Source: an uncultured archaeon (GTDB taxonomy: Archaea; Asgardarchaeota; Thorarchaeia; Thorarchaeales; Thorarchaeaceae). From it: a stretch of 64,000 nucleotides of DNA. The DNA is taken from NCBI GenBank assembly GCA_964473825.1, contig CAYYQL010000007.1, positions 30,768 through 94,767 on the forward strand, written 5' to 3'. Under the pieces are notes generated by a model. It made no database searches. It was not told where the DNA came from and saw nothing but the letters and a program-made list of their open reading frames with translations. Below, one piece after another: positions 8,513 through 62,011 of this stretch (position 1 is its first letter; the number at the start of each line of letters is the position of its first letter). The position numbers and the translations under genes are program-made.

Positions 8513-8514
8513 GA

Positions 8515-9426: not shown

Positions 9427-9498
9427 CTTGATTTCACCACATAATAGGAGCAGAGGGCTCGAAGACCGGAGTCCACGACCCTCTACATGAACCACGTT

Positions 9499-10440: not shown

Positions 10441-10516
10441 ACGTCAAGCGTTTGATGTTTGTCAAACGTAGCACCGAATGTTTGCTTATAAATATTTTGA
10501 CGTTTGCCAAACGTTG
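10436..10516. promoter_or_regulatory. Cluster of CAAACG/CGTTTG half-sites including a perfect palindrome CAAACG-tcaag-CGTTTG, plus an AT-rich TATA-like tract TTATAAATATTTT at 10485-10497. This is the promoter region of the membrane/ArsR/toastrack operon.
   Basis: Seen directly: gtcaaacgtcaagcgtttgatgtttgtcaaacgtag at 10436-10471, and ttgacgtttgccaaacgttg at 10496-10516. Confidence 0.5.
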
Positions 10517-10905
10517 TTCAGTACACACGGAAACTGTCCCAGGAATCGTCCAATCAGTTTCAACCCACGAAACACGATGTACAAGATCCTCTATCCGCGG
10601 AATTCCAAAGCTGAAGCACAAAGCACATGATGACTCAAAGGCTCTTGTGACCAGTTGTTGGTTCACGCGAATATGTCCCAAGTCCGCTCATCCGAGGAGT
10701 CAGACAACCACTCACGGATTCTCATCCACAGTCCCACGAAGACCCACTCTCTGAGAGTATAAATCGAGATTCGGAAGAAAGGCTATGTGTTCAGCATCGT
10801 TGGATTGTGGCTCGGCGTCATGGTCATTGCCCTCCATCCGTGTCCTATCATGGTCACGATGTTTCCTGACATGGCCAGCAGTTCTGTCGCGCTCGCGGAC
10901 TGGAC

Positions 10906-30599: not shown

Positions 30600-30723
30600 C
30601 CTGCAACACAATGATGTCATTATAGTTGGAGGAGGACCCGCCGGGGCGGCAAGTGCTATCCTCTGCGCAAGAGAGGGGCTTGATGTCTGTCTGCTCGAAA
30701 AGAAAGGCAAGAACAGGCACAAG

Positions 30724-31656: not shown

Positions 31657-31693
31657 CATCACAATTAAGTGTCAACGAGTATAGACTCGTGCC

Positions 31694-34002: not shown

Positions 34003-35562
34003 TCAGTCTTCTTCAAGTTCCTTCATCCGCTGTTCAACGATATGAAGAATATCTTCTTTCATCTTCTTGCCCTCAGAGATGATACGTTCGACTTCTTCTC
34101 CAGTCTTTTTCACGAAGTCTTTGTCGCGGATGTTTCCCAGATTGATGCGGACATTGAGAGCCGCCCCCTCTATTGCTGCCATGAGGGCATGTGCTGCGAC
34201 TCCAGCATCAGTGATTGCGTTGATGTTTCCCTTGTCCGCGGCGACCTTGGTATGCTCTAGGGCGTTGAAAGAGTGACGCATTGTCTCGAGCGGTACCTCG
34301 GCAGCATGTATCGTCGCGGATTCAACTGCTTTCTCCTTTGCCTCCTTCTCCTTCGCTGTGTCTTCTGACATCTTGTATGCGGTCATGACTCGGTCAAAGG
34401 CTTCCGAGTCTTTCTCAACAAGGCCCATGAGAACCCCTCGATCATTCTCGCAGGCATGACGATGCTCTAGCATCTCCTCCCGAATTGCCGCGAATTTCCG
34501 GCCAGAAAGTGACAGTCCAGTGACCATGCAGACAAGTGCACCACCAAGAGAACCCATTGCTGCAGCGACACTGCCGCCTCCAGGTGTTGCTCTGGCTCGA
34601 CGAACTTGATCTCCGAACTCGATGAGTGACATCTCGCTGAAGCTCTTCTCAGTTGGATCCTGCGCACCTCCCAAGTAGTAGAGGTCGAGAATCATCTCCT
34701 GTTCGAGTTTCTCCGGCTGTACGTAGTATTTGAATGCATCAAGTATGGCGAACAAAGGAATCATTCCCACTATCTCGGTCTCTACAACTGTTGCTCCGAA
34801 ACGTCGTGCCTCGTTGCGGACCACCTCAAGCACTTGATGAATCTTCGTTCGTTTAGGATGAATCAGGTTAAGGGAGACCTGGGTCATGCCTTTCTCAGGG
34901 AGGTCAAGACCTATTCCTTGAACGTATACAAAACCACCAGTTGTCGCTCGTACAGCATTGGCACATGTCTTTGCAACTTCAACATCTGTTGTGTTCAGAT
35001 TACAGTTGAAAGCTATGAGGAAATGTCGAGCGCCTGTGGCCGTAGCCCCTGCTGTCGGATGGATCTTCTTCGGGCCATAGTCAGGGTCTTTCTCAGCTTC
35101 TACTCCAATCATTTCACTGAGACCTTCAAATTCGCCCTGTCGAATATTGGGAAGCTCTCTGCGGTCAACCCGAGTGGCAGACTCTGCATAAAGATAGACA
35201 GGCACATCATGCTTTGAGGAGTACTCCTCTGCAAACTGCTTGGACAGCTCGATGCATTCGCCTATTGTAGTACCATGGAGAGGTATAAACGGAACGACAT
35301 CGACTGCACCCATCCGAGGATGGGCGCCCTGATGCTTAGTCAAGTCAATATTCTCAACAGCAACATCAGCAGCCTTCAGTGCTGCATCTTTGACTCTCTG
35401 GGGTTCACCGATGAATGTGAAGACAGACCGGTTGTGATCCGGGTCATACTCGACGTCCAGAAGCCTAACACCTTCAATGCTCTTTATGGCATCTGCAAGC
35501 GCGTCAATGACCTCTTTGCGTCGCCCTTCTGAGAAATTGGGTACGCATTCAACGATTTTCAT
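34003..35562 (-). CDS. Bifunctional glutamate formiminotransferase-cyclodeaminase (FTCD-like).
   Basis: N-terminal MKIVECVPNFSEGR (formiminotransferase domain). C-terminal ATPGGGSVAAAMGSLGGALVCMVTGLS (cyclodeaminase domain). 519 aa. Confidence 0.8.
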   Translation of the reverse strand: MKIVECVPNFSEGRRKEVIDALADAIKSIEGVRLLDVEYDPDHNRSVFTFIGEPQRVKDAALKAADVAVENIDLTKHQGAHPRMGAVDVVPFIPLHGTTIGECIELSKQFAEEYSSKHDVPVYLYAESATRVDRRELPNIRQGEFEGLSEMIGVEAEKDPDYGPKKIHPTAGATATGARHFLIAFNCNLNTTDVEVAKTCANAVRATTGGFVYVQGIGLDLPEKGMTQVSLNLIHPKRTKIHQVLEVVRNEARRFGATVVETEIVGMIPLFAILDAFKYYVQPEKLEQEMILDLYYLGGAQDPTEKSFSEMSLIEFGDQVRRARATPGGGSVAAAMGSLGGALVCMVTGLSLSGRKFAAIREEMLEHRHACENDRGVLMGLVEKDSEAFDRVMTAYKMSEDTAKEKEAKEKAVESATIHAAEVPLETMRHSFNALEHTKVAADKGNINAITDAGVAAHALMAAIEGAALNVRINLGNIRDKDFVKKTGEEVERIISEGKKMKEDILHIVEQRMKELEED

Positions 35563-35728
35563 TCTTTGTCACTGCGGCCGCACTTCACAACCATCTAGAA
35601 AAGCGTTTGGGCCTGACATTGGGGAGACTGCCTACCCCTCAGTCAGAGTATATACTCGAGAATCTGCAAGGTGCCTTACAGAAACGAGGCGGCAGCTAAC
35701 TGCGAGCTCTCACATCTCGTGTACGAAA

Positions 35729-36658
35729 CTAGCTGACGTACGATCCGTAATCGATAGCAACTGTCGTGAGGACGTTTGTCTGAGCCTGCTGGAAGGAGTA
35801 AGCAGCTAGAACGTTCTTGAGAAGCATCGCAATGGTCATGGGGCCAACTCCCCCTGGCACTGGAGTTATGTAGGATGCGATCTCTTTGACTTCGTCAAAG
35901 TCCACATCGCCATTGGGGGTAGCAACATCGATGACTATGGCGCCCTTCTTCACCATGTCCGCGGTAATGAAGTAGGGATCATCATCTCCTTGACGTCGAC
36001 CCACTGCGGTAACGAGTATGTCAGCCTGTTTCGTCATGGAAGGCAAGTCGCGGGTATGTGAATGGCAAACGGTGACCGTGGTGTTCCGATTCAGGAGTAG
36101 GAAGACTAGGGGTTTACCCACGATAGTTGATCTGTTGACAATGACAGCGTACATTCCATCCAAGTCAACACCCAGTAAATCCAGCATCGTCACAATTCCT
36201 TGTGGTGTGGCGGAGCAGAGCATCTCACCACCATAGAAGAGACGATAGATGTTCCGTGGAGAGAAGCCGTCAACATCCTTACTCGGGTCGATAGCGCTGA
36301 TGATGGTCTCTTCATCAATGTGCCTTGGCAACGGAAGCTGAACCAGAATACCGTGAACACTCACATCTCGATTAAGCCTCTCAATCAGTCCCATCAGATC
36401 TTCTTCGCTCGTGTCACTCGGTAACGAATGGCCATCAGAGATTATGCCCGCTTTCTTGCACGCACGATGTTTCATCCGAACATACATCTTGGAACCCGGG
36501 TCTTCTCCAACTATCACAGTTGTCAGCTTCGGGGCGATTCCGTGTAGCTCTGTCAGGCGCTCTACTTCAGATGCAATCTGGGAGCGAATCCTCTTGCTCA
36601 GTTTCTTTCCATCGATGACATTACCTTCGATGAAATCTTCAGGCTTGATTCGTTTCAC
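35729..36658 (-). CDS. folD: Bifunctional 5,10-methylene-THF dehydrogenase / 5,10-methenyl-THF cyclohydrolase.
   Basis: Typical FolD layout and motifs: KMYVRMKHRACKKAGI, GRRQGDDDPYFITADMVKKGAIVIDVA and PGGVGPMTIAMLL. Confidence 0.85.
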   Translation of the reverse strand: MKRIKPEDFIEGNVIDGKKLSKRIRSQIASEVERLTELHGIAPKLTTVIVGEDPGSKMYVRMKHRACKKAGIISDGHSLPSDTSEEDLMGLIERLNRDVSVHGILVQLPLPRHIDEETIISAIDPSKDVDGFSPRNIYRLFYGGEMLCSATPQGIVTMLDLLGVDLDGMYAVIVNRSTIVGKPLVFLLLNRNTTVTVCHSHTRDLPSMTKQADILVTAVGRRQGDDDPYFITADMVKKGAIVIDVATPNGDVDFDEVKEIASYITPVPGGVGPMTIAMLLKNVLAAYSFQQAQTNVLTTVAIDYGSYVS

Positions 36659-36670
36659 TGTACAATCCTC

Positions 36671-38365
36671 CTAGAAGACTCCGTAGATATCACCATCATC
36701 ATCTAGACCCATTCCAACGGCAGCAGGTTCCTTGGGTAAGCCGGGCATCAGCATAACATCGCCCATGTACACAATCACGAATCCAGCACCAGCACTGACG
36801 TCAACACCTCGTACAAAGACTTCAAAGCCGGTCGGGCGTCCTTTAAGTCGCGGATTGTCAGAGATACTGAACTGCGTCTTGGCAACACAGATGGGCAACT
36901 CGCCGTAGCCCCGCCGCTCCAATGAGCGTATCGGACCGCGTGCATTGTCCGAGAAGATCACCCCATCTGCCCCATACACCTTCTTGGATAGCTTCTGGAT
37001 CTTCGTCTTCAAGTCATCTTTGAGATCATATGTAGGGATCACCTTGGCATCTGCATCGACCGCATCCAATACGGCGGAGGCAAAATCCTCTCCACCCTTG
37101 CTTCCTTCTGCAAATACATCAGAGACCTCCATCGACCAACCTTGCTCATCACAGAATGAACGGAGAGTATCTATCTCCGAATCCGTATCATCCGGAAACC
37201 TGTTCAGTGCAATCACTGCAGGCAATCCGAAGTCGTGGATATTCTCGACATGTTTCTGTAGATTCGGAAAGCCTTTCGCGAGTTCACCGTCGCCGTGCTC
37301 TTTCAGTGCACGGATTGATGTGACAATGACTACAGCATTGACATCGAATTCTCCTGCCCGAGTGACTATGTTAAGGAACTTCTCTGCACCAAGGTCAGCA
37401 CCAAAACCTGCCTCAATGACCACATAGTCAAAGAGCCTTAATGCGATATCAGTAGCTATGACCGAGTTCGTCCCATGTGCGATGTTGGCAAAGGGTCCTG
37501 TGTGAATGATGGCGGGTGTTCCCTCACTGGTCTGTACAAGATTCGGTTTCAGAGCATCTTTGAGAAGCACACTCATCGCCCCCTCAGCCTTGAGGTCACC
37601 CGCATGCACCTCTTTCAAGTTCATATCCCGTGAGAGAAGAATCCGTGAAAGGCGCTTCTGCAAGTCATCGTAGTCTTTAGCCAGAGCAAGGATTGCCATG
37701 ATCTCGGAAGCAGCCGTGATGACGAATCTGTCTTCTCGTGGGAATCCGTTGGACTTGCCACCTAGGCCCACCATGACCTCTCTGAGGGCACGGTCGTTCA
37801 TGTCTATGGCGCGGGGCCAATAGACTCTTCTGACATCAATGCCAAGCTCGTTGTCTTGGTGAACATGATTATCCATCATCGCTGAAAGGAGATTGTGTGC
37901 TGCAGTAATTGCTGGGAAATCCGCGGTGAACATCAGATTGATGCGATCAGAAGGCAGTACCTTAGACTTGCCACCACCGGTTGCTCCACCCTTGATGCCG
38001 AATACAGGACCAAGAGAGGGTTCTCGAAGAGTCACAACAGCGTTATGACCCATTGCATTGAGAGCCATTGAAAGCCCAATCGAGGTGGTCGTCTTCCCCT
38101 CTCCAGCCGGGGTAGGCGTTGTCGCCGTGACAAGTATCAATTTGCCCTTTCTCTTACCGAGCTTTCTCCGTATATCTAAGTCGATCTTCGCCATGTATTT
38201 TCCATACGGTTCAAGGAATTCTTCTGAGATGCCAGCCTTTTCAGCCACTTCGGTTATGTGAATCATCATTCTACACCAATCTGATAAACAGGGGGGCTTT
38301 TGACTCATAGTGTCAAGAAGCTTTCCCTTTATGTTGTTGAATCCTATCTCTGAACGCCGCTCCAA
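36671..38365 (-). CDS. fhs: Formate-tetrahydrofolate ligase.
   Basis: Signature TPTPAGEGKTTTSIGL, and about 560 aa colinear with Fhs. Confidence 0.9.
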   Translation of the reverse strand: MERRSEIGFNNIKGKLLDTMSQKPPCLSDWCRMMIHITEVAEKAGISEEFLEPYGKYMAKIDLDIRRKLGKRKGKLILVTATTPTPAGEGKTTTSIGLSMALNAMGHNAVVTLREPSLGPVFGIKGGATGGGKSKVLPSDRINLMFTADFPAITAAHNLLSAMMDNHVHQDNELGIDVRRVYWPRAIDMNDRALREVMVGLGGKSNGFPREDRFVITAASEIMAILALAKDYDDLQKRLSRILLSRDMNLKEVHAGDLKAEGAMSVLLKDALKPNLVQTSEGTPAIIHTGPFANIAHGTNSVIATDIALRLFDYVVIEAGFGADLGAEKFLNIVTRAGEFDVNAVVIVTSIRALKEHGDGELAKGFPNLQKHVENIHDFGLPAVIALNRFPDDTDSEIDTLRSFCDEQGWSMEVSDVFAEGSKGGEDFASAVLDAVDADAKVIPTYDLKDDLKTKIQKLSKKVYGADGVIFSDNARGPIRSLERRGYGELPICVAKTQFSISDNPRLKGRPTGFEVFVRGVDVSAGAGFVIVYMGDVMLMPGLPKEPAAVGMGLDDDGDIYGVF

Positions 38366-38410
38366 AAGAACATAAGCCCTATTGTACAGACAAAGAACGG
38401 GCTGATTGAA

Positions 38411-39712
38411 ATGGAGAAGATTCCCCTCGAAGCACTACCTGATGCATTACCGGACGGCATAGACATAGAGAATTATGTGATATGCACCTACTATGTGGGT
38501 CTTCCCCCCTTTATGGATGCAAGACAAGTTGCACATGCTGCGGCAGTTGAGCAGAGCACAGGAACTTGGACAATGGTGCCAGGCGAGACCTTGGAAGTGC
38601 GGAAGCGTCATGTGGCCAAAGTGGTTGGCATCTATGAGGTGCCGCAATACGAATACAGCACCCCCAAAGATATCGAGCGGCGGCAGTACATCATACAAGT
38701 GGCATATCCATGGGAAAACTTCGGCAGACAGATTCCAATGCTACTGAGTACGGTTATTGGGAACATATCGCTTGGAGGGCGCATCAAGTGTTTAGACATG
38801 CGCTTTCCAAAGGAATGGTTGAAGGGCTTCAAAGGACCGAAGTTTGGAATCAAGGGCCTTCGGAAGCTTCTTGGTGTTAAGAAACGTCCACTCCTGAACA
38901 ATATGATCAAACCGTGTGTCTATACATCAGCCAAGATGGGAGCAGATTTGGCATACCAAGCTGCTGTTGGGGGAGCTGACATTATCAAGGATGATGAGCT
39001 CCTTGCCAACCCAGAGTTCAATACGCTTGAAGAGAGGATACCCCTGTTCATGGAGGCGCTGGATAAAGCAGATGCAGAGAAAGGAGAGAAGACACTATTC
39101 ACGGTGAATATCACAGACAGCGTCCCCAAACTGTTTGAGAACGCCGATAGAGCAATCGAGCTGGGTGCCAATGCACTCATGATAAACTTCCTTGCTGTGG
39201 GGTATTCTGCCTTCAGACATGCGTGTGAAATGAGTGAGGTTCCAGTTCTTGCACACATGGATATTGCCGGGGCTCTATCGTACTCACCCATAACCGGCAT
39301 CGGAACAAACATCGTGATCGGAAAGCTCCCCAGGATTTGTGGGTCAGACATAACCGTCTTCCCTGCCCCCTACGGGAAAGCCCCTCTACTGAAGGAACGC
39401 TTTCTAGCCATGGCACATCACATGGTCATGCCTCTCAGAAACATCAACCCCAGTATGCCCATGCCCAGCGGAGGAATATCTCAAGGCATGGTGGAGGAGG
39501 CGGTGGATGATCTGGGACCAGACATCGTGATTGGGTCGGGTGGAGCGATACACGCCCATCCAGATGGCCCAACAGCTGGAGCAAAGGCATTTCGGCAGGC
39601 CATTGAGGCCAAGATGAAAGGGGTCCACGTCAGTGTCTATGCCAAGGAACACGAGGAGCTGAAGAAAGCAATGGACTCATGGGGCTCGGGTCGGACTGGA
39701 TTCGACCTGTAA
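38411..39712 (+). CDS. RuBisCO large-subunit superfamily protein. Either a form III carboxylase or, more likely, a RuBisCO-like protein (RLP).
   Basis: Carbamylation/metal motif GGADIIKDDE is present, as are the GKL, SGG and GSGG-x5-HPDG loops. By eye-alignment, the KPK motif is KPC, the H-R pair is H-M, and the H327-equivalent looks substituted (spinach numbering). Confidence 0.7.
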   Translation: MEKIPLEALPDALPDGIDIENYVICTYYVGLPPFMDARQVAHAAAVEQSTGTWTMVPGETLEVRKRHVAKVVGIYEVPQYEYSTPKDIERRQYIIQVAYPWENFGRQIPMLLSTVIGNISLGGRIKCLDMRFPKEWLKGFKGPKFGIKGLRKLLGVKKRPLLNNMIKPCVYTSAKMGADLAYQAAVGGADIIKDDELLANPEFNTLEERIPLFMEALDKADAEKGEKTLFTVNITDSVPKLFENADRAIELGANALMINFLAVGYSAFRHACEMSEVPVLAHMDIAGALSYSPITGIGTNIVIGKLPRICGSDITVFPAPYGKAPLLKERFLAMAHHMVMPLRNINPSMPMPSGGISQGMVEEAVDDLGPDIVIGSGGAIHAHPDGPTAGAKAFRQAIEAKMKGVHVSVYAKEHEELKKAMDSWGSGRTGFDL

Positions 39713-51417: not shown

Positions 51418-51966
51418 TCAACCCGAACCGGACTCTCTGTTATGAACAAGGGTTGTTCCTAGCTGTTCGAATACATCAAGAATCCCCTCTCCGGTCTTGG
51501 CTGAAGATTCAACGTAAGGCATTCCGTGAGCGTCTGCGAACTCTCTGCCTTCAGATGGAGCAACGACCCTATCAGGAAGGTCGGTCTTATTTGCCACTAG
51601 AACTAAGGGAATCTCCTTGCCGATTGCGGTTCTAAGTTCGTCGAGCCACTCCTCGAGTACGATAAATGTTCTGCGTCGGCTAACATCGTAGACCAGCAGT
51701 CCACCACTTGAACCTCGATAATACATCGGGCGAAGAATCTGAAAGCGGCTTTGTCCCGCCACGTCCCAGATCTGCAATTTCACAGTGAGTGGATTACCAT
51801 GAATAGATGGAATCTCTATATTCTTGACTGCAAACTGACTTCCGATTGTTGTCTTGTAGTCAGTTCGAAAGAAACCATGAGAAAACCTAGTGACGATTGC
51901 AGTCTTTCCAACTGCTCCCTCACCGAGAACAACAACCTTGAACAGATAGTCATACGAGCTACTCAT
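51418..51966 (-). CDS. Ras-superfamily small GTPase (Rab/Ras-like).
   Basis: G1 GEGAVGKT, G3 WDVAGQ, G4 NKTD and G5 SAK motifs, with a C-terminal flexible tail. Confidence 0.9.
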   Translation of the reverse strand: MSSSYDYLFKVVVLGEGAVGKTAIVTRFSHGFFRTDYKTTIGSQFAVKNIEIPSIHGNPLTVKLQIWDVAGQSRFQILRPMYYRGSSGGLLVYDVSRRRTFIVLEEWLDELRTAIGKEIPLVLVANKTDLPDRVVAPSEGREFADAHGMPYVESSAKTGEGILDVFEQLGTTLVHNRESGSG

Positions 51967-52130
51967 CTAAGAGACCCCATTTCTGATTCTAATCTCATAC
52001 CCGATACATAGCGTCTTCACCAGACGTAGGCAATTCTGGTTTGAGCTTCTAGACCCGATAGAACTTTCGCCGGCTAATAAGGTTTCGTCGGGCCAGCATG
52101 ACCAAGACCAGAGAGGACTAAAGTGAAACG

Positions 52131-52991
52131 TCAGGTGGAGTTCTCAACCCATGTCAAGAACTTGCCAAGAAGCGGGTTGAAGACGTTAGGCATGTCTACC
52201 ATGGGAGAGTGGTCCCCCTTCTTGATCATTGCGATATCCGAACGGGGTAGAAGTCTGTTCAACCTCTGTCCAACGCCGGGCCGAAAGACATCATCATCCT
52301 CTCCGCAGATGACAAACGTAGGGATCTGGATATCACCCAGTCTTGGTGTGATGTCAAACCTATCGCAGGCCTTCAAATCCCTGCGCACTACTTCAGACTC
52401 GCTTTTCCCCAAGCTTCCTTCTCTCATACGAATTCGGTAGATGTTGGAGTGAACACTCGTCAGATGAGATGTTACAATGCTTAGATAACTCTCAAACGAC
52501 TCTATCGCAAGACCAGGCAGTATTCTTGAGGTTTCAAGGTCGGGGGAGGTGGAAACGAGAGCAATTGCACGCGGTTGGCGCAACTGCTCGTTGAGAACAT
52601 AGGCCATGACAATGGCTCCCCCCATGGAGTGACCAACAAACACAAAGTCCTTCAGGTCAAGATGTTCCACAACCGCTGCAAGCTCGTAGACATATCCATT
52701 CTCTATGTCAGCTTCATCAGAAATATCATCAGAGAGACCATGACCCAACAGGTCGGGAACAATGACTCTGTGAGTCTTGACAAACTCATCTATCTGCATG
52801 CTCCAGATGAGGTGAGAAGTCCCGGCTCCGTGCAGAAAGACAACTGGGAAGCCGTTGGAGGGGTCGTCCCTCTCGTCAATGTCCAAGTAATGCATCCTGT
52901 GCCCGTGGTGGTTGAGAAAAGGCATGATGTCCTCCTCATTCCATGTTACCGCACAGCGGACATATAGGTCTATGTCGCTTGGTCGAATCAA
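52131..52991 (-). CDS. Alpha/beta-fold hydrolase.
   Basis: Nucleophile elbow GHSMGG, oxyanion HGAG. 286 aa. Confidence 0.75.
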   Translation of the reverse strand: MIRPSDIDLYVRCAVTWNEEDIMPFLNHHGHRMHYLDIDERDDPSNGFPVVFLHGAGTSHLIWSMQIDEFVKTHRVIVPDLLGHGLSDDISDEADIENGYVYELAAVVEHLDLKDFVFVGHSMGGAIVMAYVLNEQLRQPRAIALVSTSPDLETSRILPGLAIESFESYLSIVTSHLTSVHSNIYRIRMREGSLGKSESEVVRRDLKACDRFDITPRLGDIQIPTFVICGEDDDVFRPGVGQRLNRLLPRSDIAMIKKGDHSPMVDMPNVFNPLLGKFLTWVENST

Positions 52992-53038
52992 CGGTACCTT
53001 TTTCTCTGAGTGAGTGCAGCATCAGGCCGGTGGCTCAT

Positions 53039-54418
53039 ATGTCTGACAGGCTCTTTGGAACTACGGGCGTGCGGAAGGTCTACGGTGACGAGTTCTCCCT
53101 TGACATGGCTCTTGACCTTGGTCGGGCACTTGGTACATATCTGAAGAGAGGCGACGTGCTTCTTGCACGAGATGCAAGGACCACCGGCTCCATGGTTGAA
53201 GATGCATTCTCAGCGGGCGTACTTTCAACAGGGGTCAACGTCGTGCGAGCCGGAGTGATTCCAACACCGACTCTGGCGTTTCTTACAAGCTATCTGGATA
53301 TGGACACCGGAGTCATGGTCACAGCATCTCATAACCCCCCCGAGTACACGGGTATCAAGTTCTGGGGTTCGGACAGCATGGGCTATACACCTGATATCGA
53401 AAGACGCCTCGAAGAGATATACCATTCTCGCGACTTCACAGCAGCAGCATGGGACAGACTGGGAGAGGAAGAATATCTCGATGCGCCCGAGTGGACACAC
53501 ATCGATGCGATTGTGAAACGGACAGATGTTGCGGCCATCCATGAGAAACGATTCAAAGTGGTTGTGGACCCAGGGAATGGAGCGGCTTGTGTACTCACAC
53601 CCTATCTCATGAGAGAGTTGGGTTGCAGCGTCATCACACTCAACGGCCAACTCGATGGACACTTCCCCGGTCGAGAGAGCGAACCGGATGAAACAACCCT
53701 TGTTGACCTGGCCAACATGGTCAAGTCATCGGGAGCCAATCTCGGCATCGCTCATGATGGGGATGGAGACAGGGTGGTGTTCGTCACTGAAAACGGAGAA
53801 ATCGTCAGAGGAGACCGAACGATTGCGCTTCTTGCTCAAGATTTTCTCCAGAGAGAGCAGGGCGGAGTCATCGTCACCACTGTTGACAGCTCAAAGGTCG
53901 TGGATGAGACTGTTGAACAGGCAGGAGGTCGCATAATCAGGACGCCTGTCGGCGATATACAAGTCGCAGTCAAGATGAAGGAAGAGAAAGGCTTGTTCGG
54001 AGGAGAGGCATGCGGGGTCTTCATCCATCCAGACTTTCATCTGGCACCAGAGCCCTTTCTCACTTCATGCCGTATTCTTGAGATGATGGCATCACACGGA
54101 AAGGGTTTCGGAGAGCTGATCTCAGAGATACCTGTATATCCCCTCAAGAAGGCGAAACTGGAATGCCCCAACAACAGGAAACCAGCAGTGATGGATAGAC
54201 TTGCCGAAGTTCTACCAGATGAAATGGAGGAGATTACGGATATATTGACTGTGGACGGGCTTGGCATATCTCTCAAAGGGGGGTGGGTCCTTGTCAGACC
54301 GTCAGGTACCGAACCAGTCATCAGAATAACATGCGAAGCCCAGTCTGAAGAGGCCGTTCAGAAGATTCTTGACAGAACGAGAAGTATCATCAGCAACACG
54401 ATTGCGACGACTAATTGA
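53039..54418 (+). CDS. Phosphoglucomutase/phosphomannomutase (alpha-D-phosphohexomutase family).
   Basis: Active-site TASHNPPEYTG and Mg loop AHDGDGDRVVF. The start is taken at MSDRLFGTTGVRK. The track start at 52943 is upstream. Confidence 0.85.
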   Translation: MSDRLFGTTGVRKVYGDEFSLDMALDLGRALGTYLKRGDVLLARDARTTGSMVEDAFSAGVLSTGVNVVRAGVIPTPTLAFLTSYLDMDTGVMVTASHNPPEYTGIKFWGSDSMGYTPDIERRLEEIYHSRDFTAAAWDRLGEEEYLDAPEWTHIDAIVKRTDVAAIHEKRFKVVVDPGNGAACVLTPYLMRELGCSVITLNGQLDGHFPGRESEPDETTLVDLANMVKSSGANLGIAHDGDGDRVVFVTENGEIVRGDRTIALLAQDFLQREQGGVIVTTVDSSKVVDETVEQAGGRIIRTPVGDIQVAVKMKEEKGLFGGEACGVFIHPDFHLAPEPFLTSCRILEMMASHGKGFGELISEIPVYPLKKAKLECPNNRKPAVMDRLAEVLPDEMEEITDILTVDGLGISLKGGWVLVRPSGTEPVIRITCEAQSEEAVQKILDRTRSIISNTIATTN

Positions 54419-54488
54419 ACACCGAGGATGTAGAGAGCAAATCAGCAAATGCAGACAAGCTTTATAGCACAACAGGGTCTCAAACACC

Positions 54489-54920
54489 TTGAAAACGAGG
54501 TCTCATATCATGAGTAATGGCGATGATGATTTCATCAAATCAGAGTTTGAATGGGCTCTGAAGGACCCTACCGAAGAGAAGCTACGAGGCCTCGGTGAGA
54601 TTGTTGATACTATCACTAAAAGGCTCGTTGGAGCAATAACTGAGCTTCAGAGCGACCTCTACGAGCTCCAGACTGCCGTACAGAGTATGGAGTCGAAACT
54701 GAACTCGCTGGACTCCCGGGTGGCATCTGGAGGGGTTGCACCATCAGCTGCAGCCTCTGCATCCTCAACACCTTCCGCCGCAGGAGCTCCGGATGAACCC
54801 ATGGCTAAAGCACCCACGCCCAAGCCGGCTCCGGCTGCAGGCCCGGGTGGCATGATGTCTGAACTGAAACAGCTCCTTGCTGCAAGGAGAAGAAAGGCTG
54901 AGGGCGGAGGCGGGGAATAG
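54489..54920 (+). CDS. Small coiled-coil protein with an Ala/Pro/Ser-rich low-complexity linker and a basic C-terminal helix.
   Basis: ITELQSDLYELQTAVQSMESKLNSLDSR, then PSAAASASSTPSAAGAP...PKPAPAAGPGG, then MMSELKQLLAARRRK. Confidence 0.45.
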   Translation: MKTRSHIMSNGDDDFIKSEFEWALKDPTEEKLRGLGEIVDTITKRLVGAITELQSDLYELQTAVQSMESKLNSLDSRVASGGVAPSAAASASSTPSAAGAPDEPMAKAPTPKPAPAAGPGGMMSELKQLLAARRRKAEGGGGE

Positions 54921-54925
54921 CCCGC

Positions 54926-55636
54926 TCATATCAAGCGTCGGACATGATTTCTCGGATAGAACGGGCCGGCGTGTTTCAATAGAGAACTGGAGAATGCTTC
55001 AGCCCTCTCGCAGTCCGATTGGACTCCTCTCAACCGGGTTCGTACATCGTAGAATCTCTCGTAGTAACCGTCTGCCTTGCTAGTCTGGCTCTTGTGACAG
55101 CGTAATCCCTCCAGTGCGGTATCATAGCTCTCAGTGACATTGACCATCACGTTAGGTCGTGAGAGAAGGGTGTTGACTTCCATATGGTAGATACAACTGA
55201 CTCGATGGGCTCTCTCGAACTGAGTCGCATGTGATGCCCATTCAGCTGCATCAGCAACAATCTTCGCACATGCTACATGGTTGTTATTGTAGTCCTGCTC
55301 GGAGTGGGTGATAATGATCTCCGGATGCCATTCGAGGATTGCCTCAATGATTCGCTTCTCCACACCCCTGTCAACAGCAAAGTCTTCCCGCTCTTCCGTC
55401 AGAAGATGACGGACACCAAGTATCTTGCTGGCCTCCTTCAGCTCTCTGTTTCGAGCTGGACTTCCCGTGAGGCACATCAGATCCACGTCTACTCCCTGAC
55501 TGGTATGAAACGCTATCGTCCCACCGGCACCCAAGCATTCGTCATCGGGATGCGCAGTAACAACGAGAATAGAGCCATCGTCAAAGGAATTCATGGTCAT
55601 CCCAGACCCAGTTTTACTAATCAAGCTTTGGCCCAA
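54926..55636 (-). CDS. bshB: PIG-L/LmbE-family N-acetylglucosaminyl deacetylase. By context a BshB-like deacetylase.
   Basis: Metal-binding motif VVTAHPDDECLGAGG. Divergent from the adjacent BshA-like gene. The symbol is assigned by context only. Confidence 0.6.
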   Translation of the reverse strand: MGQSLISKTGSGMTMNSFDDGSILVVTAHPDDECLGAGGTIAFHTSQGVDVDLMCLTGSPARNRELKEASKILGVRHLLTEEREDFAVDRGVEKRIIEAILEWHPEIIITHSEQDYNNNHVACAKIVADAAEWASHATQFERAHRVSCIYHMEVNTLLSRPNVMVNVTESYDTALEGLRCHKSQTSKADGYYERFYDVRTRLRGVQSDCERAEAFSSSLLKHAGPFYPRNHVRRLI

Positions 55637-55683
55637 CCATTCGTCTTAAAACCCACCGTTTGCTGTTCAGTACTGTGACCAAC

Positions 55684-56844
55684 ATGAGGATAGGAGTCAA
55701 TCTATATGCCTCAGTGGGTGGCTCAGGCTACCTCGCGACGCGCTTGGGACAGCACCTTGCCGACCGGGGGCACGAGATTCATTTCATCACCTACCAGAGG
55801 CCGTTTAGCCTAATGTGGGAGCAATCACGAGGAGTCTATGTTGATCTCGTGGATAGTTTTGATTATCCGCTCTTCAAGTCAACTGGAACGCCCTACACCA
55901 TGACTCTTACATCAAAGATAGTGAAAGTGGCTACCGACTCCAAGCTCAATCTCATCCACTCGCACTATGCAATCCCTCACGCTATGTCAGCATACATGGC
56001 AAGAGAGATCATTGGTATCCCCTATGTGGTCACACTACACGGTTCAGATGTCCACACTCTTGGACTCGATCCTGCATATCGCCCCGTTGTTAAGCACACG
56101 GTAGAAGAGGCAGATGGTGTCACAGCAGTTTCAGAGTTCCTCCAGAAGAAGGCCTATGAGGAACTCGGCATCGAGAGAGATATTCATGTCATCCCCAACT
56201 TCATCGATGTTCAAAGATTCACCCCTATCGAAGGAGTCCGACTCACCGTGGAGAGCGGCTGTGTTTCTCTTCGCAAATCAGAGGAGCCCGAAGATCTTCA
56301 TCCAGATGAGATGGTGCTGTTGCATGCGTCGAACTTCCGCCAAGTGAAGAGAGTAGTCGAGCTCGTAGAGATCATGAGAATCGTTGTCGACCACTATCCT
56401 GATACGCGCCTAGTGATTGCAGGGGATGGACCCACCCGCATGCATGTTGAGCGACGAATAGAGGCCCTTGACCTCTGCCAGAATGTGCATCTCTTAGGAG
56501 TGAAGAGCAACATGAGAGAAATCATGTGTTCAGCAGACATCTTTCTGCTCAATTCTACCTTAGAGGGGATGCCACTGGTCCTTTTGGAGGCTATGGCATC
56601 CGAACTCCCAGTTATCACGACACCCGCAGGAGGCATACCAGAGCTTGTACGTCCAGGGAAGGACGGTATTGTCACGAAGGGCTTCGAAAAGGAAGAGTTT
56701 GCAGGTGCAGTCCTAGAGTTAATAGAACATGATGCCCGAAGGAAGGAGTTGGGCAAGGCGGGACGAAAAAGAGTGGCTGAGGATTACTCAGCTGACAAGG
56801 TTGTCCCCATGTATGAGGGAGTCTTTAATCGAGCACTGGAATGA
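55684..56844 (+). CDS. bshA: GT4 glycosyltransferase closely resembling N-acetyl-alpha-D-glucosaminyl L-malate synthase (BshA).
   Basis: The N-terminus [36 protein letters not shown] matches the BshA N-terminus ([35 protein letters not shown]). The C-terminal [12 protein letters not shown] motif is a GT4 motif. Confidence 0.7.
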   Translation: [386 protein letters not shown]

Positions 56845-58580
56845 TAAAACGGAGATGCCAACTTTTGAGAGAGAGCGTAGCTGAAGTATATGAGGACTAC
56901 ATCTGGAAGGAGGAAATGCAGGACGCCGCCCAGTATCTCTATAATTCCCCTCCAATCTATTTCGGCGGCCTTAAGGAGAGGGTAGGAAGACTTCGAGAGG
57001 CATATACAGAGACGCAGTGGTTCACTGACGAACGAATGGAGATACTTGAGAAGGCCCTGGAAAGGATAAATCGCGAGCTGGGCGCTCTCACACCAGCAGT
57101 TAGAGAGGAAATCTCAGAGCTTCGGCAGGGAGCCATAGAAGGAGCACACCAGAGCATCGTCTTTGGCGGCCCATGCTATGTTCTGAACAAGGCCGCAACA
57201 GCATCGATACTTGCAGATATCACATCTGACGATGATAGTCCCGTAGCCGCATATTACTTCGTTGCAGACTATGATGAGGTTCAGGCTGAACTGACCAACA
57301 CCAGAACACCACTGCTGGGATCTTCAGGCAATCTGCTCAGTATTCCGGTTCCCAAGGAGTTCAAGCATTCGCCCGTAAGTGTTCTACCCCTTCCCGAGTA
57401 TACCTGGTACGCAGAAGTAGAAGAGAGTATCCGCATGGGATACAGACCGATGATCAAAGACCTCGACAACAGGGCACGTATCATATACGAAGAGAGACTT
57501 GAGCAGATTCTCTCCATAACAAGATGGGGTTTCGTGAACTCAGATACACTGGGGGAATGGGCTCGACGAGTCCTTGCCCGTCTGTTCAATGTCGAGGGAA
57601 ACTTGGGAATACCAATTGTCGCATATTCAGACCCTCAGATACGGAAGCTGGCAACTCTTGGAATGGAGTTCCTTCTGAAGAGAGAGAACCGAGAGAGATT
57701 CTTGAAGGCCCAAGATCAAGCAACCGACAGGATCATCGAACTCGGTCTAGAGCCCGGCTCCGGTAGAAGAGACCGCTCCTACGTTCCGTTTCTATACGAG
57801 TGTCCTGAGAAAGGCTGCAACAGGAGTAGATTCGAACTGCAGTATTATACTAGGGAAGACACTGCGACGCTGTCAGGTAGGTGCCCATCATGCCATCAGT
57901 ACTTCACAATCGAGGTCTCAGCAGACAACCCTGACTTGAGTGACCATGCCGACTACCTATCGCCCCGTGTAGATTCACGGCAGTTTATCGTGGACATGAT
58001 GATTCCCACTGTGTGTCATATTGGGGGGCCAGGTGAGACCGCTTATTATGCCCAGGTGATACCCGTGGCCGACGCTCTAGACATTCCGTTCCCAGAATTT
58101 GTGAAGTATCCACGGCTCTTCTTCAACACACCATGGAGTGAGGCTCTTGCAAACCAGTTGGACAAGAGGGGTGAACCGGTTCTACATGGTCGTACACTCT
58201 TCAAACTGCTAGGAGAGTCAAGTGCAGCCAGAAGAAAAGAGAACTATGATGAGATGAATTCTGCCATTCAGAGACTGGGCGATCACATCAGAGACCAGCA
58301 TGATGTCATAGTGAAGAGGGTGGAAGGGATAGAGAAGCAGAGAAAGAACTCAAGCGGCGAAGAAGATGAGGAGCTTCAAGGCATCAAGTTTGACCTCGAA
58401 ATGTATCTCAGCTGGACATATGGGCGATATTCGGCCGAGAAGTCCGTGCAGGAGGCCTCTTGGTCCTGGATAGAGTGGGCAATAAACTCTGGACTGGCGG
58501 ACCTGTTCGGTCCATACGAGAGAAGCTATGTTGAGCAGCTTAAGAATGGAGCCACGATGTGGATAAACTTCATGATATAG
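56841..58580 (+). CDS. bshC: BshC-like protein (bacillithiol biosynthesis cysteine-adding enzyme family, YllA/DUF2317).
   Basis: AAYYFVADYDEV matches the BshC FWVAGEDHD region, and VCHIGGPGETAYYAQVIPV matches BshC IAGPGEINYW. Length 579 aa against about 540. Overlaps the bshA-like stop by 4 nt. Confidence 0.6.
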   Translation: MIKRRCQLLRESVAEVYEDYIWKEEMQDAAQYLYNSPPIYFGGLKERVGRLREAYTETQWFTDERMEILEKALERINRELGALTPAVREEISELRQGAIEGAHQSIVFGGPCYVLNKAATASILADITSDDDSPVAAYYFVADYDEVQAELTNTRTPLLGSSGNLLSIPVPKEFKHSPVSVLPLPEYTWYAEVEESIRMGYRPMIKDLDNRARIIYEERLEQILSITRWGFVNSDTLGEWARRVLARLFNVEGNLGIPIVAYSDPQIRKLATLGMEFLLKRENRERFLKAQDQATDRIIELGLEPGSGRRDRSYVPFLYECPEKGCNRSRFELQYYTREDTATLSGRCPSCHQYFTIEVSADNPDLSDHADYLSPRVDSRQFIVDMMIPTVCHIGGPGETAYYAQVIPVADALDIPFPEFVKYPRLFFNTPWSEALANQLDKRGEPVLHGRTLFKLLGESSAARRKENYDEMNSAIQRLGDHIRDQHDVIVKRVEGIEKQRKNSSGEEDEELQGIKFDLEMYLSWTYGRYSAEKSVQEASWSWIEWAINSGLADLFGPYERSYVEQLKNGATMWINFMI

Positions 58581-58625
58581 AAAGACAGAAGCCCCGGCTT
58601 CAACCGGGGCGAAGACACGCATAAC

Positions 58626-59894
58626 CTAGAGTTCTTTCGAGAGTAGTTCTCCGAGTCGGGAAATCCCCTCAGAGATGATCTCGGGCGTTGCATAACAGAA
58701 CCCGAGCCGCATAGTATTGGGCTGGGGTACAGATGGTTTCAAGTCGTTGCCATTGTCAGTCAGATAATAGCCATTGATTGGATAGAAGGGACCTCCAGGC
58801 ACATAGAGAACATCATTTGGCAATGCAACTTCCTCCATGAACCTGCTGCTGTTGAAGTCTTTCTTTTCGCTCTCCCACCAGATGAAGAAGCCTCCGGTCG
58901 GGTCAGTCCTCTTGCCAGCAGGGAATGACTCATCCATGGCCTTTGCCATCGCTACGTACCGCTCCTTATACTTGGGAACGATTTCCTTCATCGCCACATC
59001 AATGTAGTTCTTGTAGTATTCGTCTAGGATACGCTGTATCAGTGTTGATGTACAGAGGTCTAAGTAGCCCTTGTCTTTGAGAACCTGTTCACGCAGATTT
59101 GGAGGCATGATGGAATAGCCAACTCGCAGAACCGCAGCCTCTTTGCTCGTAGTTCCAAGATAAGCAACACGACGGTTCTCTTTGTCAAGGGTCTTTATCG
59201 GGGGTGGGTTCTTCTTGAACTGAATTTCCGCGTATGCAGAGTCCTCAACAAGAAGAGTATTGTGGTTCTCACATATATCAAAGAGGGCCTGACGCCGTTT
59301 CATGGGGAGAGTAGTTCCCTTTGGGTTATCAGAGTCTGGCACCACGTAGACAATGTCAGGCAACTTGCCAAACTTCATCTTAGACACATGGATCGCCTTC
59401 TCCACATACTCTGGAATGATTCCATCAAGATCCGTTGGCACAGTTATGACCCTAGCTCCGAGCTTGACCGCAGGGACAAGAAAGCCGAGATATGCGGGCG
59501 AGGTGGTTATGATGACATCACCGGGGTCAATCATCGTATCAAGAATTGCGTAGATGGCCTGTTGGGAACCATTTGTCACTGACACACATTCATACTGCTC
59601 CTCGCAGTCTATCGGTATATTCCGGACATCGTGCAGGCGCTTGGCCAGAGTCTTAAGAAACCAAGGCTGGCCGCCTGTAGGCCCATAGTTGAAATCTTCC
59701 AGTGCAAGCTTGGGATCCTCTTTGTAGAGCTCAGAAAGATCGGCCATAATCTTCGCGAAAATTTCTGTCGGGATGATACCCGGCTTACCGCCTGCGAAGT
59801 AGTATGGAACGCTATACTTCAACAGGGTACGAATCTGAGACTCCTCAATGAAAGAGGTCCAGGCTGCAAAATTATACCCGTCTGAATCGGTCAT
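58626..59894 (-). CDS. PLP-dependent aminotransferase (fold type I, class I/II).
   Basis: PLP-lysine region LGTTSKEAAVLRVGY. About 420 aa. Confidence 0.7.
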   Translation of the reverse strand: MTDSDGYNFAAWTSFIEESQIRTLLKYSVPYYFAGGKPGIIPTEIFAKIMADLSELYKEDPKLALEDFNYGPTGGQPWFLKTLAKRLHDVRNIPIDCEEQYECVSVTNGSQQAIYAILDTMIDPGDVIITTSPAYLGFLVPAVKLGARVITVPTDLDGIIPEYVEKAIHVSKMKFGKLPDIVYVVPDSDNPKGTTLPMKRRQALFDICENHNTLLVEDSAYAEIQFKKNPPPIKTLDKENRRVAYLGTTSKEAAVLRVGYSIMPPNLREQVLKDKGYLDLCTSTLIQRILDEYYKNYIDVAMKEIVPKYKERYVAMAKAMDESFPAGKRTDPTGGFFIWWESEKKDFNSSRFMEEVALPNDVLYVPGGPFYPINGYYLTDNGNDLKPSVPQPNTMRLGFCYATPEIISEGISRLGELLSKEL

Positions 59895-60092
59895 TCATAT
59901 TCCTCCAAGAGACAGATTGGTGGTCTGTAGCAAACAGCCATCAGCGTCATGTACAACTCTGTACATTTGCAGGAGTATCATAACACAGTTCGCACTTATC
60001 TGTTTCTTTCATTTCACTCGTTTGGATGCTCGAAATAGTTCGACGGTGTACAATATTGTGCACAGCAGCCAAAGGATTCGTGTCTTCGTTAA

Positions 60093-60878
60093 TCAGTACG
60101 TCTCATCAGCAAGATTTCTGGCGGCCGAACGAGGATTCTCAGCATCGCAAATAGAACGGGCAACAATCACATAGGAGGCACCTGCGTCTATTGCATCTCG
60201 AGCCCTTCCACCCTGAGCACCAACGCCAGGACTCAATATGGGGACGTCTGGGCCCAACAGGTCGCGAACTTCCCGAATCTTGTTGGGGTACGTTGCACCG
60301 ACGATGACTGCATCAGCGTCCCAGGATTGTGCTCTCTGAGCGAATGTCATGTACAAAGGCTCGTGCCTCTTCTTCTTCTCATCTGTTGCCACATAGAGAC
60401 CATAGCCCTCGTCCGCAGCAGGATGAGACATGTAACAGAGTGTTATGACCGCCCTCTTTCGCTCGCGTGCCAACTTAAACACGGTATCCAATCCGCCCTC
60501 CCAACCTACTAGAGGGTTGGCAATGACTGCATCAAATCCCGCATCGAAATAGTACCGTGTGATCCAACCGTTCGTGTTTCCGATGTCGTTTATCTTGCAG
60601 TCCATGATTGCCAACAGGCCCTCTCTGTGAATACTCTCAACGAGGCGTCTTATACCATCGAAGAGACCTAGAGGCAGGACCAGTTGCCGATTGAACTTGT
60701 AACCGACCACAGACTCCGAAGTCTGCTGGATGATGTCTTTGGCACGAGTCTCCAACTCTGATCGCGTAGCTGCGAGCCGACCCTCAATGAGCTGTGGAGT
60801 ATCAGCCGTGAGGTCGAGTCCCACTATGAGGCGGGTCTTTCTGACGAAAGCAGCTGCGGATAATTTGCTCTTGAGCAA
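60093..60878 (-). CDS. pyrF: Orotidine-5'-phosphate decarboxylase (type 2).
   Basis: LIVGLD, and DCKINDIGNT matching the DxKxxDIxNT active-site motif. Confidence 0.8.
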   Translation of the reverse strand: MLKSKLSAAAFVRKTRLIVGLDLTADTPQLIEGRLAATRSELETRAKDIIQQTSESVVGYKFNRQLVLPLGLFDGIRRLVESIHREGLLAIMDCKINDIGNTNGWITRYYFDAGFDAVIANPLVGWEGGLDTVFKLARERKRAVITLCYMSHPAADEGYGLYVATDEKKKRHEPLYMTFAQRAQSWDADAVIVGATYPNKIREVRDLLGPDVPILSPGVGAQGGRARDAIDAGASYVIVARSICDAENPRSAARNLADETY

Positions 60879-60952
60879 TCTGCTACCTCTCCCAACTTCT
60901 TCTTCTAAGGACGGGTCACGTATGCTTATATTACATTTGGAGTCTGGAGTGT

Positions 60953-62011
60953 GTGGGAGCGGCGTCCTTGAAACCAGATTGGCTCATGACACGATTTGTT
61001 GTCGTCCTGATTGCAGTCTTCTCTCCAGTGTACTTCTTCATTCTTGTGTTTCTGCTTCCCTTCCAGATGACCCCCTTTCAGAATAGTCTGCATAATCTTC
61101 TGTTCCAGTATCTAGTGGTCCCTTCAGTCTTCTCGGCCACCTGGGTCCTGCTGATATACTTCCACAGATACCGACTGGCAAACACGGTTCATCTCATGCA
61201 GGAGTCTACGACTGCTGTTCCGCTACGATGGAGAGTGTTCTACGGGATGAATGCCGCCTTTGTCCTGATGTTCTTCATCTTACCCATGGTTACAGCCCCA
61301 TTAGCCATCATAGGAGGATTCATTGTCGCTGGAAACGTCTTCTATAACGCCGCGCTGGGAAGACTTGGAAGAAGTAAGATTGCCACCCTCTTTGCAGTCC
61401 TCATTGCAATCGCTCTCTGCATTCTACCATTCCTCATAATGGTTGAGTTTGTCCCGAACTATCTAGATGTTTGGGATAGCATACTCTCATCATGGACCGG
61501 CCTCGGTTTCATGATTGTGTATGGAATAGCTCAATGCCTTGTGAATGCTCTAAGTTTCGGTGCACCTGTGCACTTTGTCTACTATGCCGCTGAGGAGTAT
61601 GATAGAGGACTCTATGGTCAGGTGTATACAAAGACTCCATCCAACATGATTCGTGTTGGTCAAGCATTGTTATTTCTCATCTTCACAGTTCTATATTTGC
61701 CGCCTATACAGACACCTTTTGGCATCATCCCATTTGCAGATATGTCGTGGCTGTTCATGGACTACATCAACTGGATATCGCTCGGTATCGTCACAATCAT
61801 GATCCTTGTGAGAAGATACTTCCAAGTCGAGGGAGATACAACGCTGGGGAGTACCTCAAACATAGTTGTTGTTGCCCTGTTCCTGATAGTTGAGATCTTC
61901 TTCAAGACGGACCTTCTCATCGTCACGATAGTCATTTGGCTGGCATTCTTTCTGTTTGCAGGAGTCATCATTGCTAACTACCTACGAGCATCATCTCGGG
62001 AGATGTATTAA
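60953..62011 (+). CDS. Polytopic membrane protein of unknown function (about 9 TM).
   Basis: Hydrophobic profile only. Confidence 0.5.
   Translation: MGAASLKPDWLMTRFVVVLIAVFSPVYFFILVFLLPFQMTPFQNSLHNLLFQYLVVPSVFSATWVLLIYFHRYRLANTVHLMQESTTAVPLRWRVFYGMNAAFVLMFFILPMVTAPLAIIGGFIVAGNVFYNAALGRLGRSKIATLFAVLIAIALCILPFLIMVEFVPNYLDVWDSILSSWTGLGFMIVYGIAQCLVNALSFGAPVHFVYYAAEEYDRGLYGQVYTKTPSNMIRVGQALLFLIFTVLYLPPIQTPFGIIPFADMSWLFMDYINWISLGIVTIMILVRRYFQVEGDTTLGSTSNIVVVALFLIVEIFFKTDLLIVTIVIWLAFFLFAGVIIANYLRASSREMY

Follow-up and report, generated by a model that had tools for sequence, protein, structure and literature searches.

The stretch analysed here (64,000 nucleotides; hereafter, the window) comes from contig CAYYQL010000007.1 (positions 30,768 to 94,767 of the forward strand) of an uncultured archaeon of the family Thorarchaeaceae. 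At 54926-58580, it carries three adjacent genes that a first-pass annotation, made from the letters alone, had assigned to the biosynthesis of bacillithiol (BSH), a thiol of low molecular weight. All three open reading frames (ORFs) were recovered there: an LmbE/PIG-L N-deacetylase resembling BshB (54926-55636, minus strand; 236 a.a. from a TTG), the two-domain glycosyltransferase BshA of family 4 (GT4; GT-B fold), a predicted UDP-N-acetylglucosamine (UDP-GlcNAc):L-malate N-acetylglucosaminyltransferase (55660-56844, plus strand; 394-a.a. ORF), and an Asgard-type BshC-like protein of 579 a.a., the putative cysteine-adding enzyme (56841-58580, plus strand). The deacetylase gene adjoins the GT4 gene divergently, as the annotation had described, with the TTG starts called by the ORF finder lying 23 bp apart on opposite strands. 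The likely ATG starts are 55600 or 55594 for the BshB-like gene, which would probably give a protein of about 222-224 a.a., and 55685 for BshA (beginning MRIGV), with ~84 bp between them. The proposed translational coupling of the GT4 and BshC-like genes stands as tight co-directional packing, with an ATGA overlap at 56841-56844; strict coupling is uncertain, because the closest relative (protein P0001, 92% identical) begins where the window has an in-frame TTG at 56865, 24 nt downstream, and because a Thorarchaeota locus with 51% identity has a 6-bp gap between the two genes.

The GT4 protein combines the Pfam domains Glyco_transf_4 and Glycos_transf_1 and scored 367.4 bits on the NCBIfam equivalog model thiol_BshA (TIGR03999; cut-off, 273.7), against 144.7 bits for the runner-up model and 60.1 bits for MshA, placing it with BshA rather than with MshA or generic GT4 enzymes. 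Its matches in the Protein Data Bank (PDB) were to BshA structures (3mbo, 2jjm and 5d00; E about 1e-69). The EX7E donor motif is present (E-G-M-P-L-V-L-L-E), and the VGGSG, HxHYAxPHA, TLHG[ST]D and NFID motifs are common to the window protein and Bacillus anthracis BshA. The N-terminus had been described as nearly superimposable on BshA, and it is indeed the closer part, with 43% identity to B. anthracis BshA in the N-domain and 33% in the C-domain. The same annotation had suggested an acceptor other than malate, of which we found no sign: such an acceptor is unsupported because the choice of acceptor lies with BshA, which is more canonical than either of its partners, has its motifs intact and is best conserved in the N-domain, on the acceptor side, domain-level conservation serving here as a proxy for the malate-contacting residues.

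The deacetylase matched PF02585 with 70.1 bits (gathering threshold, 28.2), and its best PDB match was 2ixd, an LmbE-related protein of Bacillus cereus (E = 1.3e-13). His29, Asp31, Asp32 and His120 aligned with His12, Asp14, Asp15 and His113 of 2ixd, and we take these residues to be the metal ligands of the LmbE family (His-x-Asp-Asp and a distal His) together with its catalytic Asp. The AHPDDE motif and the aligned His and Asp residues are kept in the BshB-like homologues of Thorarchaeota and in those of the two other contigs described below, one from Kariarchaeum/Heimdallarchaeota (L082) and one labelled Bathyarchaeota (L083).

The assignment of the third ORF to the BshC family was borne out by a PF10079 match of 62.1 bits (gathering threshold, 27) over residues 41-420. 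A plain sequence search against 4WBD, the B. subtilis BshC structure, gave E = 9e-5, and with a profile of the Asgard-type proteins 4WBD became the sole match in the PDB (E = 2e-22). Alignment by hhalign with a profile of 25 bacterial BshCs (99.95%, E = 6.7e-38) covered 491 columns and residues 10-557 at 22% identity. An AlphaFold2 model built with 24 homologues (predicted local distance difference test score, pLDDT, 87.9; predicted template modelling score, 0.89) comprises a Rossmann domain of the class I aminoacyl-tRNA synthetase (aaRS) type, a beta insert rich in Cys and a helical domain at the C-terminus. When this model was searched with Foldseek, 4WBD ranked first over the full length (E = 3.7e-18; template modelling scores, 0.66/0.70; 595 columns), followed by the class I lysyl-tRNA synthetase (LysRS-I) 1irx with E = 4e-7, other class I aaRSs matching weakly. 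In the C-terminal region, the hhalign alignment reaches residue 557 and the model shows long helices at 451-527. Judged by profiles and fold, the 579-a.a. protein is a genuine, full-length but very divergent BshC homologue that lies below the curated same-function threshold. An exact look-up of the window protein returned no record, and the closest relative is 92% identical, from the locus (L003) of an uncultured archaeon represented by a metagenome-assembled genome (MAG).

The two BshC hallmark segments that had been pointed out in this ORF were both verified against B. subtilis BshC (4WBD): YFVADYDEVQAE aligns with FWVAGEDHDLDE, the FWVAGEDHD segment, and IGGPGETAYY aligns with IAGPGEINYW. 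We delineated three core motifs, all on the plus strand. Motif 1, E100-x-A-H-Q104...G109-G110-P...N116-K117 (57138-57191), corresponds to the bacterial GQQxGLxxGPLYxxxK; all of 29 Asgard-type sequences have its Gln104, Gly109, Gly110 and Lys117, at positions that do not vary in bacteria either. Motif 2, A-D143-Y-D145-x-x-Q-x-E150 (57264-57290), is the counterpart of FWVAGEDHDxxE, with Asp145 and Glu150 invariant in the Asgard and bacterial sets alike. Motif 3, H393-x-G-G-P-G-E399-x-A-Y-Y-A-Q405 (58017-58055), is the counterpart of IAGPGEINYW; the Asgard type shows no variation at Gly396, Gly398, Glu399 and Tyr402, nor does bacterial BshC at the matching Gly, Glu and Tyr positions. The window protein keeps Arg380 as well, and almost every one of these core residues is invariant in both groups. 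Since a small invariant core is kept despite only ~17-22% identity to bacterial BshC, the candidate catalytic residues of BshC are narrowed. Other positions are specific to the Asgard type, namely Asn116 (Tyr in bacteria), Arg376-x-Asp378 and His393. Two remote proteins, P0228 (588 a.a.) and P0260 (584 a.a.), retain AHQ as well as the Cys cluster described below, lack the GPGE motif, and match PF10079 barely or at the N-terminus only; they may form a further, functionally different branch of the family.

The Cys cluster, C321-x4-C326-x21-C348-x2-C351 (57801-57893, plus strand), is predicted to form a zinc-ribbon-like beta-hairpin insert. All four cysteines are invariant in 24/24 Thorarchaeota sequences. 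Among 37 Asgard-type sequences (35 from Thorarchaeota and the middle tier of the homologue search described below, plus P0228 and P0260), 28 have a four-Cys pattern (C-x1-4-C...C-x2-C) and eight more, a Heimdallarchaeota/Kariarchaeum-like group, have three cysteines, most with Asp replacing the second; the pattern occurs in none of 73 bacterial representatives. The AlphaFold2 model places the cluster on confident beta-hairpins (pLDDT 93-97), as expected of a zinc ribbon, and a weak PDB resemblance of the region, to a TRIM zinc-finger, was not significant (E = 0.82). Several class I aaRSs bear Cys-rich zinc knuckles in their connective peptides, and cysteinyl-tRNA synthetase (CysRS) and MshC use zinc in cysteine recognition, which makes the Asgard Cys cluster suggestive. 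We infer that the insert probably binds zinc, and a role of this site in catalysis is conceivable.

The surroundings are those of an Asgard archaeon, in agreement with the first-pass annotation. They include a Ras-family GTPase (51418-51966) and an archaeal phosphoglucosamine mutase, GlmM (52943-54418, plus strand; probable real start near 53039), which scored 521.7 bits on Arch_GlmM (TIGR03990; cut-off, 439). The window is collinear with about 70 Thorarchaeota species-representative genomes, among them the closed 3.16-Mb chromosome CP070761.1. The BshB/BshA/BshC trio is adjacent in about 60 Thorarchaeota species genomes, and in all Thorarchaeota loci that are long enough, the order is Ras, abhydrolase, GlmM, a 143-a.a. 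ORF, BshB (minus strand), BshA and BshC, followed by a class I/II aminotransferase (minus strand), a protein of the orotidine monophosphate decarboxylase family (minus strand) and a 352-a.a. multi-pass membrane protein. Within Thorarchaeota, conservation among the three proteins is highest for BshA (67-96% identity), ahead of BshB (52-86%) and BshC (48-92%). The ten-gene block (51418-62011) stays collinear even among Thorarchaeota whose BshCs are about 50% identical, and its aminotransferase is unusually conserved (69-93%). A 2.7-kb contig binned as 'Candidatus Hermodarchaeota' (L059; JBHLLF010000117.1) encodes a BshA 76% and a BshC 50% identical to those of the window; it resembles typical Thorarchaeota loci and may be a mis-binned Thorarchaeota contig.

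An exhaustive search for BshC-like homologues over 1.84 billion representatives resolved three tiers: Thorarchaeota at >50% identity, about 35 full-length clusters at 25-37% (150-350 bits), and canonical bacterial BshCs at no more than 62 bits. Identity to the window protein is at least 48% within Thorarchaeota and at most 25% in the best bacteria. The named members of the middle tier belong to Odinarchaeota, Hodarchaeales, Kariarchaeum/Heimdallarchaeota, Ranarchaeia and Promethearchaeota, with one cluster labelled Bathyarchaeota; none of the named sequences in this tier is bacterial. In a distance tree, the Asgard-type BshCs separated from the 73 bacterial representatives in 100/100 bootstraps, and Thorarchaeota formed a group in 99/100. 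For BshA, pairwise identities gave no Asgard clade among the five non-Thorarchaeota sequences compared: Thorarchaeota BshA is 32% identical to that of Kariarchaeum/Heimdallarchaeota, 41% to that of L083, 34% to that of Acidaminobacter and 33-43%, depending on the domain, to that of Bacillus.

Because the Thorarchaeota block is wholly syntenic, adjacency within it could reflect inertia, and adjacency in other arrangements is therefore the informative kind. The Kariarchaeum/Heimdallarchaeota contig (L082) has the order BshC (plus strand), GT4 (minus strand), PIG-L (plus strand). In L083, the interval 5291-11518 encodes PIG-L, an amidohydrolase (Amidohydro_2), BshC, a thioredoxin-fold protein (Thioredoxin_9), GT4, two DinB_2 proteins, one with a weak mycothiol-transferase match, and a MerR/GyrI-like regulator. 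DinB-fold proteins include the bacillithiol and mycothiol S-transferases, and from its gene content this cluster looks like an island for thiol biosynthesis plus use. The GT4 proteins of both contigs pass the BshA cut-off (316.8 bits for L082 and 384.3 bits for L083), and their PIG-L and BshC proteins are sub-threshold, the BshB-like ones scoring 58-73 bits. Linkage of the BshC-like gene to a BshA of equivalog level accordingly holds across three gene arrangements, and the recurring Asgard pattern, as read from these matches, is a canonical BshA accompanied by an Asgard-specific BshB and BshC.

The best curated-model match of each of the three proteins is the corresponding Bsh family, and this agreement, together with the adjacency of the genes in about 60 other genomes, is far beyond chance. 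We consider it likely that the Thorarchaeota locus specifies three successive steps towards a thiol of the bacillithiol type, either Cys-GlcN-malate itself or a compound derived closely from it. BshA, a retaining GT4 enzyme, would transfer GlcNAc from UDP-GlcNAc to L-malate, as its equivalog-level model match suggests, and GlmM may help to provide the sugar nucleotide. The LmbE-family enzyme, with a metal ion held by His-Asp-His, would then deacetylate the product to glucosaminyl-malate (GlcN-malate), consistent with its family and its intact residues. The BshC-like protein would finally add cysteine to the free amine, a step to which homology, fold and gene linkage point.

Several observations weigh against this pathway. 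The best NCBIfam match of the deacetylase, BshB1 (TIGR04001), reached only 85.4 bits for a cut-off of 182.5, and the BshB2 model (TIGR04000) 62.6 bits for a cut-off of 195.25. The BshC-like protein scored 66.9 bits on the equivalog TIGR03998, whose cut-off is 265.8; six Asgard-type proteins from named lineages scored 35-75 bits, the remote P0260 31 bits, and P0228 had no match. Five bacterial control BshCs, taken from the homologue search, reached 420-491 bits on the same model and matched both PF10079 and PF24850, the latter with 60-90 bits; this family, the C-terminal coiled-coil dimerisation domain, was undetected in every Asgard-type protein tested. One Odinarchaeota contig carries the BshC-like gene alone. 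A Pfam survey of the 64-kb window found no Brx, Bdr (YpdA), Bst/DinB or FosB. No organism's BshC has had its activity reconstituted in vitro, and the reaction is undefined even in bacteria (PMC5790435); bacillithiol has never been detected in any archaeon, and YpdA homologues are almost absent from archaea (PMC7278568). The claim that the trio matches the bacillithiol pathway accordingly holds at the equivalog level for BshA and at the family level for BshB and BshC, both of which fall short of their equivalog cut-offs. Because these are missed by a wide margin, a function identical to that of bacterial BshB and BshC is not guaranteed.

The alternative that survives best is a related but chemically different thiol, in which the GlcN-malate scaffold receives something other than L-cysteine or is modified further, for example by N-methylation or acylation. 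The low identity of the BshB-like and BshC-like proteins to their bacterial counterparts (~17-22%, far below the cut-offs) and the Asgard-specific insert with its three or four cysteines would fit such a product, and modified bacillithiols such as N-methyl-BSH are known in bacteria (PMC12719100). We nevertheless regard it as unlikely, as the invariant BshC core residues are common to the Asgard and bacterial types, BshA is fully canonical, and neither a methyltransferase nor an acyltransferase is linked to the genes in the window or in the other contexts examined.

Another alternative is that no thiol is made at all: GlcN-malate or another GlcN-glycoside would serve as a solute or as an envelope or glycoconjugate precursor, and the BshC-like protein would not be a ligase. 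The biochemically undefined BshC reaction, the failure of the Asgard type on the curated BshC model and the absence of thiol-dependent enzymes from the 64-kb window leave room for this, as does the review that found no evident reductase for bacillithiol disulfide (BSSB) in Thorarchaeota (PMC7278568). However, the protein shares full-length homology and fold with BshC, stays linked to an equivalog-level BshA in all three arrangements, and in L083 is embedded among thioredoxin-fold and DinB_2 genes; moreover, loss of bshC in B. subtilis abolishes BSH and leaves GlcN-malate to accumulate (PMC5790435). We judge this alternative very improbable.

Recent import from bacteria, or contamination of the assembly with bacterial DNA, has a negligible probability. 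In its favour, bacillithiol belongs elsewhere to bacteria, the BshA of the window shares 33-43% identity with that of Bacillus, and a RefSeq-based survey lists no archaeal BshABC (PMC12719100). That survey left out MAGs and required >25% identity, which the Asgard family would fail. Against it, the ten-gene order including the Ras GTPase and archaeal GlmM recurs in about 70 Thorarchaeota representatives, one of them a closed chromosome, other Asgard lineages fill the BshC identity gap between Thorarchaeota and bacteria, the Asgard clade is supported in 100/100 bootstraps, and the GC content is flat across the locus, with no compositional anomaly. Recent horizontal transfer and contamination are thus excluded for practical purposes by synteny, the BshC tree and composition. 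The first-pass annotation had offered lateral acquisition or an undescribed archaeal thiol; its first option, if recent, does not agree with these three lines of evidence, and it had omitted vertical inheritance. The evidence favours long vertical inheritance of the cluster inside the Asgard archaea over a recent arrival from bacteria.

Beyond the predicted pathway in Thorarchaeota lies a bolder proposal, that Asgard archaea including Hodarchaeales and Heimdallarchaeota have long used a bacillithiol-type thiol made through an ancient BshC branch that keeps a zinc module lost in bacteria. This module might handle cysteine, or the product might be an undescribed thiol; we hold the proposal to be doubtful.

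With regard to known systems, the closest likeness of the predicted Thorarchaeota pathway is to the BshA/BshB/BshC system of B. subtilis, B. anthracis and Staphylococcus aureus, which draws on these three enzyme families in an identical logical sequence. The LmbE fold has the same metal and base residues, and BshC has the same fold, domain order and core motifs. In Thorarchaeota the three genes sit together, whereas B. subtilis has bshC at a locus of its own (PMC5790435). The Asgard BshC differs from that of Bacillus in its insert of three to four cysteines, its C-terminal domain that PF24850 does not recognise, and its divergent sequence; the window also differs in having no Brx, Bdr or Bst genes nearby and in belonging to an Asgard archaeon. 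The mycothiol system of Actinobacteria (MshA/MshB/MshC/MshD) follows the same logic, in which a GT4 enzyme adds GlcNAc, an LmbE-family enzyme deacetylates and cysteine is ligated to the amine. In contrast to that system, whose MshC is a paralogue of CysRS, Thorarchaeota have a homologue of BshC as the predicted ligase, and no MshD-type acetyltransferase is linked. A mycothiol reading was rejected on these scores as well, MshA reaching 60 bits for a cut-off of 462.5 and MshB 31.7 bits for 224, with MshB and Mca giving weak matches to the N-terminal motif of the deacetylase and the ligase not being CysRS-like. With class I aaRSs (LysRS-I 1irx, methionyl-, glutamyl- and cysteinyl-tRNA synthetases), the kinship is at the level of the fold and limited to the Rossmann domain of the model, and the BshC-like profile had no sequence-level match to any aaRS in the PDB; no HIGH or KMSKS motif was located in the protein.

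As to earlier work, BshC was originally identified by the co-occurrence or co-localisation of its gene with bshA (PMC5790435). The distribution given in the first-pass annotation, mainly Firmicutes, Deinococcus and Chlorobi, is out of date, as predictions of bacillithiol now extend to thousands of bacterial species, those of Bacteroidota in particular (PMC12719100). Rawat and Maupin-Furlow (2020) counted 39 archaeal hits in InterPro for BshA and as many for BshC, most of them Asgard, and suggested that archaea may make BSH (PMC7278568); that review says nothing of BshB, of how the genes cluster, of how far the Asgard BshC has diverged, of the Cys insert or of the spread among Asgard classes. 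The 2025 RefSeq-based survey concluded that no archaeon has the bacillithiol pathway (PMC12719100), probably because MAGs are not in RefSeq and the >25% identity threshold drops a divergent family; on that basis, the Asgard BshB and BshC types would both be overlooked. At NCBI, hundreds of such proteins already bear the name 'bacillithiol biosynthesis BshC [Candidatus Thorarchaeota archaeon]'. Since the existence of an Asgard BshC is thus already in the databases and in the 2020 review, the novelty is limited in this respect. In the literature searched, we found no paper on the three-gene clustering, the Asgard-specific BshC clade or the Cys insert, and nothing relevant on bacillithiol in Asgard lineages beyond the 2020 review. 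The new element is a divergent, probably zinc-binding BshC type common to Asgard lineages.

If Asgard archaea do make bacillithiol or a close relative, a thiol held to be bacterial would join the redox biology of the nearest archaeal relatives of eukaryotes and would bear on when and why glutathione took over. The Asgard type could also help to resolve the unsolved BshC reaction, with the Cys cluster as a testable handle, and an ancient zinc-bearing branch, if real, may reveal how BshC is related to class I aaRSs and to cysteine activation. The conflict over archaeal bacillithiol genes between the review (PMC7278568) and the survey (PMC12719100) could be corrected.

Of the sequences between the genes, the divergent BshB/BshA intergenic region (55601-55684, between the likely start codons), whose letters were read directly, presumably holds both archaeal promoters, with the A/T-rich TTTTACTAA and CTTAAAA as candidate elements. 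A sigma-70 promoter scan, which is not applicable to archaea, gave matches at chance level. Between the convergent BshC and aminotransferase genes lies a GC-rich hairpin, GCCCCGG-n6-CCGGGGC (58591-58610), with eight pairs, seven of them G-C; it resembles a terminator whose T-rich tail is on the minus strand. The region holds six terminator-like sites against 3.9 +/- 2.4 in shuffled sequence, which is not above expectation. A scan for tRNA genes found none.

GlmM is collinear in every Thorarchaeota locus that reaches that far and is not adjacent to the Kariarchaeum/Heimdallarchaeota or L083 clusters. It could supply glucosamine 1-phosphate for UDP-GlcNAc, the donor of BshA, as a putative functional link. 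We considered the aminotransferase and GlmM as core members of the pathway and rejected both, as they are linked within Thorarchaeota only and absent beside the other two clusters. Between GlmM and BshB, the 143-a.a. ORF (54489-54920, plus strand) combines an N-terminal half that resembles a coiled coil with a basic C-terminal tail rich in Ala and Pro. The ORF had no significant family match in the curated-model or Pfam searches, and it is kept at this position in all Thorarchaeota loci with 39-92% identity.

Elsewhere in the window, 26853-32791 encodes two radical-SAM proteins followed by two lipoate-protein-ligase paralogues, one of them a DUF116 fusion, and an FAD-binding protein; this may be a cluster for lipoyl-cofactor assembly or salvage. 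The interval 65-6889 encodes a 707-a.a. protein made up of TSP3 repeats of the bacterial type (238 bits), along with a TPR protein and one of 1097 a.a. whose sole recognisable part is an N-terminal GNAT acetyltransferase domain. A tetrahydrofolate (THF)-linked one-carbon pathway lies at 34003-39712, with formiminotransferase-cyclodeaminase, FolD and formate-THF ligase (752 bits) followed by a gene resembling the RuBisCO large subunit, and this THF-linked set fits the published metabolism of Thorarchaeota.

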